This document shows positions 28,725 to 31,680 of a stretch of 64,000 bases of DNA, piece after piece (the first letter of the stretch is position 1; every line of letters begins with the position of its first letter). The stretch is from Escherichia phage WPEC1: the sequence record PV659873.1; one strand, written 5' to 3'. The translations under genes were made by a program, and so were the position numbers. The notes beneath the pieces were generated by a model that was not told where the DNA came from, did no database searches, and saw only the letters and a list, made by a program, of their open reading frames with translations.

Positions 28725-29833
28725 TGAAATACACTATTTTTGGAGATGTGGCTGTTGTAAATAAGGAATATGGTGTTGAAGCTAATAAACTTCCTGCTGG
28801 AGTTTGGGTTGTCAACTGCGATCCGCACGGTAACTACTCTTTAGTGCGTGGCGAAAGTTTCTCTCTTCCGAACACTCTTTATGGGGAAACTAAAGACCGC
28901 GCCGCACATGTTATTAAAACATTTGCTCGTCGTAGTAAAGAAGGTAAAAATACTGGGGTGTTACTGACAGGGACAAAGGGCAGTGGTAAGACGATGTTAG
29001 CTAAACTGATTAGCATGTCTCTAATGTCCACAGAAGGTTTAGGTATTCCAACCATTTTGGTTACACAGCCTTACACAGATGCTGGCTTCTTAGAATTTAT
29101 GAGTAAAATTACAGATCGTGCTGTTGTTTTATTTGACGAATTTGATAAAGTGTACGCTAAGAAAGAAGATCAGGAAGCACTGTTGACCTTGTTGGATGGA
29201 ACAGGAAGTGGGAATAAACTTTACATCCTCACTAAAAATAGTGGCTATATCTCGGAGTATTTTGTAAACCGTCCTAGTCGTATCTATTACAGTTTCAATT
29301 ACGATAAACTGTCTAGTGAAACTATGTTAGATTACTTGGATAAGAACTTGGTAAATAAAAAGCACGTAGATAACTTCCAACGTTTATGGGATGTTAGTAC
29401 AGAGTTGTCTTTTGATGTTATTCAAGGTATTGTAGAAGAATTGAATTTCTATCCAAAAATGACTTTTAAAGAATGTCTTGAAATGATGGGTATTTCTTTA
29501 GGCAACGATGCTAAATGGAATGTGGCTTCTATCGTAGCTAATGGCAAAACTCTGAAGGTGAATTGGATCAATAACTGGCACGACTTCACCCCTACTAAGT
29601 TTTTGTCGGGTGCTTGTTCCCTGAACATCTATCTACAAAGTTTGAAAGATGATGAAGTGGAAGCAATGGAAACCAACAGTTATGTTATCCTGGATGAAGA
29701 TGGTGATCCACATATTGATCTATGTGCAACGGCTGATGGTCTAACTTGTGATCTGATTGAAGGTGGTAAGATTCTGGTTATGAGCACTACACCAGGAAAC
29801 ACTCTGCGAGTGGTGCTGGAGCCTGTACGGTAG
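28724..29833 (+). CDS. AAA-type P-loop ATPase
   Basis: 369 aa; Walker A GTKGSGKTMLAK, Walker B VVLFDEFDK. Last ~100 nt also occur inverted at about 31043-31130. Confidence 0.55.
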   Translation: MKYTIFGDVAVVNKEYGVEANKLPAGVWVVNCDPHGNYSLVRGESFSLPNTLYGETKDRAAHVIKTFARRSKEGKNTGVLLTGTKGSGKTMLAKLISMSLMSTEGLGIPTILVTQPYTDAGFLEFMSKITDRAVVLFDEFDKVYAKKEDQEALLTLLDGTGSGNKLYILTKNSGYISEYFVNRPSRIYYSFNYDKLSSETMLDYLDKNLVNKKHVDNFQRLWDVSTELSFDVIQGIVEELNFYPKMTFKECLEMMGISLGNDAKWNVASIVANGKTLKVNWINNWHDFTPTKFLSGACSLNIYLQSLKDDEVEAMETNSYVILDEDGDPHIDLCATADGLTCDLIEGGKILVMSTTPGNTLRVVLEPVR

Positions 29834-31680
29834 GCCCATTGTTCAGGAGTGTAATGATAATATTTAGAACAACGGCAAGGAAGGCCACCCCTTTTCAAAT
29901 GAGTCATCTTCATCTCAAATTTATTATCGCATAAGCCTTCTTTACAATAATCATCCTCTGCACATATAGGACATTCTACAGAAAAGAACCGTATGTATTG
30001 CGATTGATTCATGTATGTCTGGAGTTGGGTATGCGGTAGTTTCTTGTTTCTTAGCTTCTCATTGTGCAAAATACCTGGAGGCATTTTTATGATAATTTTA
30101 GCAACAATTCTTATGATGTTGATAGCCATTGCTATTCAAAGAAAAGAACCGTATGTATTGCGATTGATTCATGTATGTCTGGAGTTGGGTATGCGGTAGT
30201 TTCTTGTTTCTTCGCTTATCATTGTGCAAAATACCTGGAGGCATTTTTATGATAATTTTAGCAACAATTCTTATGATGTTGATAGCCATTTGGACAGAGG
30301 AAGAAGACCAGATTCTTGAAAAGTTAAATAGTGAAGGGTATAGTCATGCAGGGATTGGTAAGGTTCTCAACAGATCTCGCAACTCTGTATCCCACAGGTT
30401 AATGCGAAATAAGGTCAACACAAAATAAGAGGAGAATTTTTTGAAGTTTTCTCTTTATTGAAGTGTCTTTCACATACATGGCTTCAACATACTCTTCGTA
30501 TGTTAAATACTCATATAGTTTTAAAAGATAATCTACACCGTAGTTATCGTCTGGATTTGAACCAAACCTACGACAGTCAAAGTGTCGTGTGCTACCTGAC
30601 TACACTACAAACCAATAAATCATTTCATGAAGGGCAACCAGAAGAGGTGTGAGAGAAGGAGAAAACCATGAGTAAAAGAGAAAGTTTTCTGGCAACCCTT
30701 TATTTTGGATTTACATTTGCAAATCGGTTGAACTAATTGGTTAATGGAGGTAATATGTTTAGTAAAGAAATGAGAGAGGTAACCGCTACTCTGGTAGTTG
30801 ATCATGGTGTTGAAGTTGAGCGTCACATTTGGAAAGATGAGCCTCCTTTCTTTGATTTACATACATGGCTTCAACATACTCTTCGTATGTTAAATACTCA
30901 TATAGTTTTAAAAGATAATCTACACCGTAGTTATCCAATGTTTTCAGTGTTTCCGAGGTATCTTTAACGACTTTGCAAAGAATAACCAAATCCCTCCATA
31001 AGAAATGCCCCTTGCGGGGCATCTTTATTAGAACACACTACCTAGTGTAGTGGAACGTTGTGTTCCAGGCTCCAGCACCACTCGCAGAGTGTTTCCTGGT
31101 GTAGTGCTCATAACCAGAATCTTACCACCTTCAATCAGATCACTACAAAATTGCGCATATTTTATCCTCCTCATATCTGATCTTATCACAAAATGATATA
31201 CAATTGCAAGCATTAAAAAGAAAAAAGCCCCTAACCTTTCGGAGAGGGGTGTTAAAAATAACAAGGAGGAGGGGCAAAGCCCCAAGAGAGGATAAAAGGA
31301 CGGGTAAATTTTCTTATATCGTAGTGTCTATAGATAAAGATAGTTTACATACTCCTAGTATCCTTTTTCATTTCTACAAAGAGGATGGAGTATTTAAAAA
31401 TCCAGATATAATTCTTATTGACGAGTCTATTGGCGATATATGGATCGGTTTCCAAGGTTATAAAGATTATAAAAGGACGGGTAAATTTTCTTATATCGTA
31501 GTGTCTATAGATAAAGATAGTTTCCATACTCCTAGTATCCTTTTTAATTTCTACAAAGAGGATGGAGTATTTAAAAATCCAGATATAATTCTTATTGACG
31601 AAAAGATAATCTACACCGTAGTTATCCAATGTTTTCAGTGTTTCCGAGGTATCTTTAACGACTTTGCAAAGAATAACCTC
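29832..31680. repeat. repeat island 5
   Basis: Modules include inverted copies of island 3 units (29832-30000), tandem pair at 29975/30135 and 30055/30215, inverted tRNA-Gln 5' half at about 30530, and copies of modules from islands 1, 2, 3, 4. Confidence 0.8.

Follow-up and report, generated by a model that had tools for sequence, protein, structure and literature searches.

In a de Bruijn assembly graph with k = 77, a single-nucleotide polymorphism opens a bubble whose edge is 2k+1 = 155 bp long and carries the variant at its centre; for SPAdes with 150-nt reads, 77 is the largest default k. The DNA analysed here (the window) is a 64,000-nt stretch of Escherichia phage WPEC1 (PV659873.1) and belongs to a phAPEC8-like E. 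coli phage (Phapecoctavirus). One part of it, island 5 (29826-31601), resembles a set of unmerged edges of such a graph: it has 155-bp pieces, a variant at base 78, shared flanking 77-mers, repeats near 77 bp and tandem 77-mers, and tracing the overlaps in the window restores the native gene order. It differs from simple unmerged edges in that some of its edges are multiply present and a few measure 149-153 bp. The layout is also superficially that of Mu Gin, P1 Cin and the shufflons, in which an inverted repeat lies in the 3' end of a gene and a second ending stands in the opposite orientation; unlike these systems, the island has no recombinase, its repeat is an assembler overlap, and only one C-terminus is real. 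Genuine phage mosaicism shares with island 5 the short gene fragments between intact genes, but genuine remnants have neither quantised lengths nor centred substitutions and are usually shared with some relatives.

The records most like the window, with 99.9% identity over large blocks, are WPEC4 (PV682947.1), WPEC2 (PV691511.1) and WPEC6 (PV763039.1). They are oversized, at 155-159 kb versus about 148-152 kb for most listed relatives, and each has 14-17 scattered matches to the island, compared with 7-8 in other relatives. None of the three contains the island 5 arrangement, the modules having been inspected in detail for WPEC4 only. A literature search on WPEC2, WPEC4, WPEC6 and EC3.18 returned no relevant paper. 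We put the probability at about 95% that island 5 is a concatenation of short edges of a k = 77 de Bruijn assembly graph and is absent from the phage chromosome; it is an assembly artefact, neither a gene island nor a real feature.

Composition and geometry of island 5

Island 5 consists of 12 abutting modules with no unique sequence between them. The modules, the gene and block end that precede them and the block that follows are:

28724-29833, plus strand: AAA ATPase gene as it stands, 369 aa (Pfam AAA PF00004, E = 8.5e-7)
29748-29825, plus strand: end of the ATPase-bearing block, last 78 bp; graph overlap with module M9
29826-29980, minus strand: M1, 155 bp; WPEC4 31146-31300 (CDS068) with 1 mismatch, at position 78 (29903); interior of the gene downstream of the ATPase gene, in reverse complement, with a CapR-domain fragment (Pfam scan)
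29981-30135, plus strand: M2, 155 bp; Mt1B1_P17 104611-104765 with 1 mismatch, at position 78 (30058); spans the ribosome-binding site (RBS) and start of the 10237 gene, its last 77 bp being identical to the block start at 10207
30136-30290, plus strand: M3, 155 bp; Mt1B1_P17 104606-104760 with 1 mismatch, at position 78 (30213); same locus as M2, offset by 5 bp
30291-30445, plus strand: M4, 155 bp; WPEC4 21487-21333 with 1 mismatch, at position 78 (30368); the 3'-terminal 45 codons of CDS040 (134 aa), then the RBS and start of the next gene
30446-30548, plus strand: M5, 103 bp; Mt1B1_P17 80586-80688, within gp136, a small gene downstream of the tail assembly chaperone gene
30549-30703, plus strand: M6, 155 bp; Mt1B1_P17 94538-94692 (tRNA region) with 1 mismatch, at position 78 (30626); arms identical to the block ends 24610-24686 and 9493-9570
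30704-30858, plus strand: M7, 155 bp; WPEC4 27766-27920 (Mt1B1_P17 18516-18362) with mismatches at positions 78 and 80
30859-30987, plus strand: M8, 129 bp; Mt1B1_P17 80612-80740, exact; last 78 bp the same as 31601-31678, where the next large block starts
30988-31142, minus strand: M9, 155 bp; authentic ATPase 3' end with 1 mismatch to WPEC4, at position 78 (31065), changing V to G; holds the last 38 ATPase codons, the stop at 31028-31030 and a terminator hairpin at about 30998-31022
31143-31291, plus strand: M10, 149 bp; Mt1B1_P17 93549-93697 with a mismatch at position 78 (31220); also copied at 13025-13173 and 48824-48972
31292-31446, plus strand: M11, 155 bp; Mt1B1_P17 107452-107606 with mismatches including position 78 (31369)
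31447-31601, plus strand: M12, 155 bp; Mt1B1_P17 107430-107584 with mismatches including position 78 (31524); same locus as M11, offset by 22 bp
31602-35122, minus strand: next authentic block, Mt1B1_P17 about 80663-84187, with the tail assembly chaperone, tube and sheath genes and neighbours; cuts genes at both ends (gp136 on the left, the minor head protein gene on the right)

For each of the 12 modules, WPEC4 or Mt1B1_P17 has one contiguous, single-copy counterpart to which the entire module aligns gap-free; M9 has its full-length match in WPEC4 and aligns only partially to the more divergent Mt1B1_P17. The lengths run 155, 155, 155, 155, 103, 155, 155, 129, 155, 149, 155 and 155 bp, so that nine of 12 are exactly 155, and each of these nine, like the 149-bp M10, has a mismatch to the relative at exactly position 78. 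Edges of a k = 77 graph are expected to have lengths at 2k+1 (minimum k+1 = 78), a variant at the centre and exact repeats of k or little more, and island 5 agrees with this. The same pattern runs through the whole window. Comparison of copies some 150 bp long gives 33 mismatches, 30 of which fall 72-80 nt from whichever end is closer, and when island pieces are matched to the reference, the match lengths have two peaks, at about 78 and about 155 bp. Maximal exact repeats form 177 pairs in the window, with lengths of 71-82 bp in all pairs except eight (mode 77, with 57 pairs; maximum 82), compared with only three exact repeats of at least 30 bp in Mt1B1_P17, a normal relative.

These features fit a scheme in which short contigs (graph edges) and large contigs would have been joined end to end into one pseudo-genome with their overlaps left unmerged. 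The 155-bp modules would then be bubble edges of 2k+1, each with one central variant base and 77 bp in common with the main path on either side, and the 103-, 129- and 149-bp modules would be edges between neighbouring branch points. Modules of 149-153 bp, of which there are some, need nearby second variants or trimming of a few bases at the ends. Some edges are present several times; a 75-bp half-edge of reference 116720-116794, for example, occurs at at least five sites. Identical 77-mers stand in tandem at 24078-24154/24155-24231 and 24533-24609/24610-24686 because graph-adjacent pieces were joined without overlap trimming. The assembler was probably SPAdes, to judge from k = 77, and reads across the module junctions are presumably lacking.

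As to why the graph broke where it did, natural short repeats were considered and rejected: exact repeats in the reference stay below 35 bp, a 328-bp end overlap excepted, and variant or error sites explain the breaks better. At seven of the 10 central positions an A that immediately follows a T run has become C, which looks like a systematic-error pattern, and most central variants are probably sequencing errors that recur when coverage is very high, not true minor alleles.

The two endings of the ATPase gene

The ATPase gene is genuine up to 29825, and its last two codons and stop (V, R, stop) come from the junction with M1; the reference match stops at 29827. An earlier note on this DNA had reported that the 3' end of the gene recurs in inverted orientation, as about 100 nt at about 31043-31130. 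An exact inverted copy does exist, although it is shorter and placed differently: 29748-29825 is the reverse complement of 31066-31143 (78 bp, 100% identity, E = 2e-35). The two copies part immediately after these 78 bp and, as the earlier note had recognised, differ at the final codons, the copy in place reading LEPVR and a stop, the inverted one LEPGTQRSTTLGSVF and a stop. LEPVR had been taken for the native ending, and this assignment has to be reversed. In Mt1B1_P17, ASO2A and WPEC4 the ATPase has 379 aa and ends in every case with LEPVTQRSTTLGSVF and a stop, from which the inverted copy differs solely by V to G, at the central variant base of its 155-bp module; the comparison with relatives that had been proposed thus identifies the C-terminus of the inverted copy as the ancestral one. 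When 28148-29825 is spliced to the reverse complement of 30988-31065, the product gives a gap-free alignment of 1756 bp with WPEC4 that contains 1 mismatch, and it encodes a 379-aa protein followed by the terminator. Judged by these alignments, the inverted copy is the real, ancestral ATPase 3' end, and LEPVR with its stop is a product of the junction 29825/29826.

The ATPase-bearing contig would have halted at the branch point at 29825, where an unrelated edge was appended, giving the false LEPVR ending, while M9, its true continuation, would have been placed about 1.2 kb away and reversed, giving an inverted duplicate with an apparent "alternative C-terminus". Since island 5 is made of pasted graph fragments, both the duplicated gene end and the alternative C-terminus are products of bad assembly and not biology.

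Two further repeats had been described in the island, and both are borne out. The start of the 10237 gene is present in tandem, 30059-30136 being the same as 10207-10284 (78 bp, exact) and 30219-30290 the same as 10207-10278, 160 bp apart. The WTEEEDQIL gene remnant is likewise partly repeated: 30369-30445 (the last 77 bp of M4) matches 35433-35509 exactly over 77 bp, and in WPEC4 the remnant forms the last 45 codons of the 134-aa gene directly upstream of the homologue of the 35505 gene. None of the three repeats is attributable to chance. The biology that had been implied for the island does not follow, as its pieces have the exact geometry of k = 77 graph edges and their arrangement occurs in no searched relative.

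Alternative explanations

The first alternative is a real mosaic or hyperplastic intergenic region, in which many illegitimate recombination or template-switching events copied short pieces and left behind remnants of genes as well as a truncated ATPase. The DNA is presented as a single contiguous molecule, gene remnants and plastic regions do occur in phage genomes, and the sibling record WPEC4 has such islands too; even so, we regard this explanation as very unlikely. It would have to produce exact 155-bp pieces with a single substitution at base 78 and repeats capped at 77 bp, and we know of no biological process that does either. Conserved genes (ATPase, gp136, minor head protein) are split or truncated, and the related Phapecoctavirus records found in the search lack the arrangement. 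WPEC4 is 99.94% identical to the window over the ATPase locus, yet there the locus is intact and the islands lie elsewhere: one of 6.6 kb, composed of the same modules, occupies 38932-45582. The order and adjacencies of the island modules were found in none of 50,697 phage records searched, and in the phage collections neither the island nor any junction query is covered to 80% or more by a single record; the matches there are scattered single modules only. The junction string 29815-29851 was not found in IMG/VR, metagenome contigs or genome contigs. The arrangement is thus missing from independent genomes of the same species.

It is extremely unlikely that the islands are physically part of the phage DNA through copying and pasting of 155-bp pieces with a centred substitution, or that branch points recurring in independent WPEC assemblies reflect real site-specific heterogeneity. 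If the islands were physically present, the match to the geometry of a k = 77 assembler would be accidental.

Hardly any probability attaches, either, to an invertible segment flanked by the 78-bp inverted repeat and switching the ATPase between two C-termini, comparable to Gin, Cin, Hin and the shufflons. In its favour, the repeat is perfect; one arm lies within the gene's 3' end, and the second precedes a different ending. However, when the ATPase and nine ORFs of the island were scanned against Pfam, no domain of a site-specific recombinase or invertase was detected in any of them. A switch would also need two or more functional alternative C-terminal coding segments, but there is one canonical ending only: LEPVR owes its last two codons and its stop to the neighbouring gene, a fragment of which lies there inverted, and the other ending is the standard one in the relatives checked. 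The repeat length is k+1, as in dozens of unrelated repeats in the window, and the sequence is single-copy in relatives. With a single real C-terminus and without a recombinase, we reject the invertible segment. Least probable of all is a diversity-generating retroelement, with the modules as its template and variable repeats, or another form of targeted mutagenesis. Module copies of about 150 bp that differ by point substitutions, with seven of 10 central differences at a reference adenine, might suggest it, but we reject it. The variation is restricted to the module centres: differences fall at the central base or within a few bases of it, position 78 itself is always among them, and they are not scattered across many adenines. 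The modules derive from unrelated coding, intergenic and tRNA regions, and a reverse transcriptase is neither annotated in the reference genome nor detected in the nine island ORFs that the Pfam scan covered along with the ATPase.

Block order and use of the record

Compared with Mt1B1_P17, the large blocks of the window lack collinearity, and an island of short modules stands at each block junction. Threading the blocks through their overlaps restores the arrangement of the relatives, both at the ATPase gene and between the block end at 35122 and the block start at 13327, which are connected via modules at 35123-35432; through this second link the minor head protein gene, split in two, is made whole. 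The observed block order fits neither the concatenation of a length-sorted contig file nor a reference-guided ordering of contigs.

The relevance of island 5 lies in quality control only. The window sequence and at least WPEC4 are pseudo-genomes that contain several kilobases of unmerged graph fragments, along with misordered blocks. Analyses that build on them would carry over false features: the ATPase would be truncated and the minor head protein gene split, dozens of small ORFs would be spurious, inverted and tandem repeats as well as rearrangements would be reported that do not exist, and the genome size would be overstated. We advise the same artefact reading for all the other "islands" that have been noted in the window. 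Exact repeats capped at k, together with 2k+1-bp pieces bearing a central mismatch, provide a reusable test for this type of artefact. That 29826-31601 is composed entirely of such pieces, with quantised lengths, had been overlooked in the earlier note.

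Modules and their lengths

Island 5, which follows the AAA ATPase gene (28724-29833) and spans 29826-31601, splits without remainder into 12 abutting modules. Each module aligns full-length and without gaps to one contiguous single-copy locus in the sibling record WPEC4 (PV682947.1) or in Mt1B1_P17 (NC_052662.1), the intact phAPEC8-like relative used as reference; the loci of origin are mutually unrelated.

Modules of Island 5, with window coordinates, length and source
M1, 29826-29980, 155 bp: interior of the gene downstream of the ATPase, inverted
M2, 29981-30135, 155 bp: start of the membrane-protein gene at 10237
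M3, 30136-30290, 155 bp: start of the membrane-protein gene at 10237
M4, 30291-30445, 155 bp: end of the 134-aa gene upstream of the gene starting at 35505
M5, 30446-30548, 103 bp: small gene after the tail assembly chaperone gene
M6, 30549-30703, 155 bp: tRNA region
M7, 30704-30858, 155 bp
M8, 30859-30987, 129 bp: small gene after the tail assembly chaperone gene
M9, 30988-31142, 155 bp: ATPase 3' end with terminator, inverted
M10, 31143-31291, 149 bp
M11, 31292-31446, 155 bp
M12, 31447-31601, 155 bp

All repeats reported in the earlier note are present in the window: the inverted ATPase 3' end (the 78 bp of 29748-29825 recur exactly, as reverse complement, at 31066-31143), the tandem starts of the membrane-protein gene (its RBS and start at 10207-10284 recur at 30059-30136 and 30219-30290) and the recurring last module of a supposed gene remnant (30369-30445 equals 35433-35509). 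The fragment WTEEEDQIL...NTK corresponds to the final 45 codons of WPEC4 CDS040 (134 aa), a sequence that 13 relatives carry uninterrupted, immediately upstream of their 35505-gene homologue.

In a de Bruijn graph with k-mer nodes, adjacent edges share k bases and the shortest edge is k+1; a variant at one base gives rise to a bubble edge 2k+1 bases long, in which it occupies base k+1. For 150-nt reads, the k values that SPAdes uses by default go up to 77, as far as is known. The expectations for k = 77, namely 77, 78, 155 and 78, coincide exactly with the values in the window. Its exact repeats have a mode of 77 bp (57 pairs) and a maximum of 82 bp, and all but eight of the 177 maximal exact repeat pairs measure 71-82 bp; in a normal relative, no more than three exact repeats reach 30 bp. 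All nine 155-bp modules, and M10 too, have a mismatch to the relative at exactly the central base, position 78. When copies of about 150 bp are compared throughout the window, 30 of the 33 mismatches fall 72-80 nt from whichever end is nearer. As the observed lengths are those of k = 77, we therefore read Island 5 as small graph edges written end to end, and put the probability that it is an assembly or concatenation artefact at about 95%. M2 and M3, the tandem starts of the membrane-protein gene, are bubble edges whose central variant sites lie 5 bp from each other. Neither length nor reference position accounts for the order of the pieces, and some edges recur several times. Identical tandem 77-mers (24078-24154 and 24155-24231; 24533-24609 and 24610-24686) show the untrimmed overlap where graph neighbours were placed side by side.

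Quantised module lengths, substitutions at module centres, conserved genes that are truncated or split, and relatives that lack the arrangement all contradict a real mosaic region. Neither the module order nor the post-ATPase junction occurs in any of 50,697 phage records, and the junction string was not found in IMG/VR, metagenome contigs or genome contigs.

Native genes restored through shared overlaps

If the pieces are graph edges, tracing their 77-bp overlaps should restore the native genome, and it did so in two cases. When 28148-29825 is spliced to reverse-complemented 30988-31065, the resulting 1756 bp align to WPEC4, where the ATPase locus is intact, with no gaps and one mismatch, the centre base of M9. 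This product encodes a 379-aa ATPase followed by a terminator annotated in phage ASO2A, another relative. The ATPases of Mt1B1_P17, ASO2A and WPEC4 (3/3) end in ...LEPVTQRSTTLGSVF before the stop at 379 aa, and this comparison, proposed in the earlier note, decides the ancestral C-terminus.

Both endings described there exist in the window, LEPVR-stop in place and LEPGTQRSTTLGSVF-stop on the minus strand (31028-31285). Since the relatives share the ending of the inverted copy, the labels "native" for the first and "alternative" for the second are reversed; the description stands, but the polarity is wrong and the implied biology is not supported. LEPVR results from the end of the contig at 29825, to which M1, a piece of the downstream gene in reverse orientation, was joined. 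The true ending is in the inverted copy (M9), and only one C-terminus is real; the single V-to-G difference in that copy is the central variant of its bubble edge. An invertible switch of the ATPase C-terminus is contradicted by the single real ending, and also by the lack of a recombinase domain in the Island 5 ORFs.

The second case is the minor head protein gene (Mt1B1_P17 83895-84311), which the window carries as two parts, 34834-35126 and 13327-13449, with about 21 kb between them. The modules of 35123-35432 contain both the 77-mer that closes the block ending at 35122 and the 77-mer that opens the block starting at 13327, and this link restores the reference adjacency 84187/84189, rejoining the two halves.

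Central variants

The central-variant sites of the Island 5 modules span 29903-31524. Seven of ten central variants change a reference A to C directly after a T run, one further variant is T to G within an A run, and one site carries three different bases among its copies. A dozen edges are stacked on reference 116715-116878, and their variants fall at three sites within 5 bp (116795-116799). The variants resemble sequencing error that recurs in particular contexts when coverage is very high, perhaps mixed with some real minor alleles. Branch points common to WPEC4 and the window (reference 116797, 39104, 123645, 93620, 150259 and 6796), together with the A-to-C pattern, suggest systematic sequencing error or shared heterogeneity. 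Variation restricted to module centres, modules of unrelated origin and Island 5 ORFs that lack a reverse transcriptase domain all contradict a diversity-generating retroelement.

Block order and sibling records

The 8.5 kb surrounding Island 5 are 99-100% identical to genomes of Phapecoctavirus (phAPEC8-like E. coli myoviruses of about 150 kb, subfamily Stephanstirmvirinae), and no matched record covers this region contiguously. When the whole window was mapped onto Mt1B1_P17, its large blocks proved authentic (95.6-100% identity), joined in non-native order and orientation.

Authentic blocks of the window mapping to Mt1B1_P17
1-9570
10204-13024
13327-22758
24610-25597
27446-29827
31601-35126
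35493-48823
50617 to 64000, in three collinear pieces

At least seven stretches between blocks, Island 5 among them, consist of numerous short pieces about 78 or about 155 bp long, every piece matching a site near some block end. Further islands of such pieces were noted at 9571-10206, 13025-13326, 22758-24609, 25597-27445, 35123-35432 and 48824-49283, and islands occupy every junction between out-of-order blocks. Any earlier finding on these islands has the same artefact explanation. The near-perfect 159-bp palindrome at 27287-27445 consists of two inverted copies of a 75-bp half-edge (reference 116720-116794) side by side; it would pass for a strong hairpin or origin-like inverted repeat, and is artefactual. 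Within an otherwise collinear region, 49890-50617 and 58539-58875 have no or only weak match in Mt1B1_P17 (79% at 50004-50292); they probably reflect ordinary indels or gene replacements specific to the strain.

Closest to the window are the records of WPEC2, WPEC4 and WPEC6, phages from Thai hospital wastewater that were isolated on E. coli EC3.18; a literature search on WPEC phages found nothing relevant. The three records measure 155-159 kb, against about 148-152 kb for most listed relatives, and contain 14-17 scattered matches to Island 5, against 7-8 in other relatives. The first 50 kb of WPEC4 hold 366 exact repeat pairs, nearly all of 71-80 bp (mode 77), and the blocks there are also out of order and non-collinear with Mt1B1_P17. 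A 6.6-kb run at 38932-45582 comprises about 60 modules of about 77 or 153 bp, annotated with dozens of "hypothetical protein" CDSs of 90-150 bp in a record titled "complete genome". The public WPEC4 record carries the same artefact as the window with the fragments placed elsewhere, as an artefact predicts and a heritable genomic structure does not. The value of Island 5 is as a warning about the window sequence and its sibling records. A further WPEC4 stretch, 941-1172, was noted alongside the 6.6-kb run as the same artefact.
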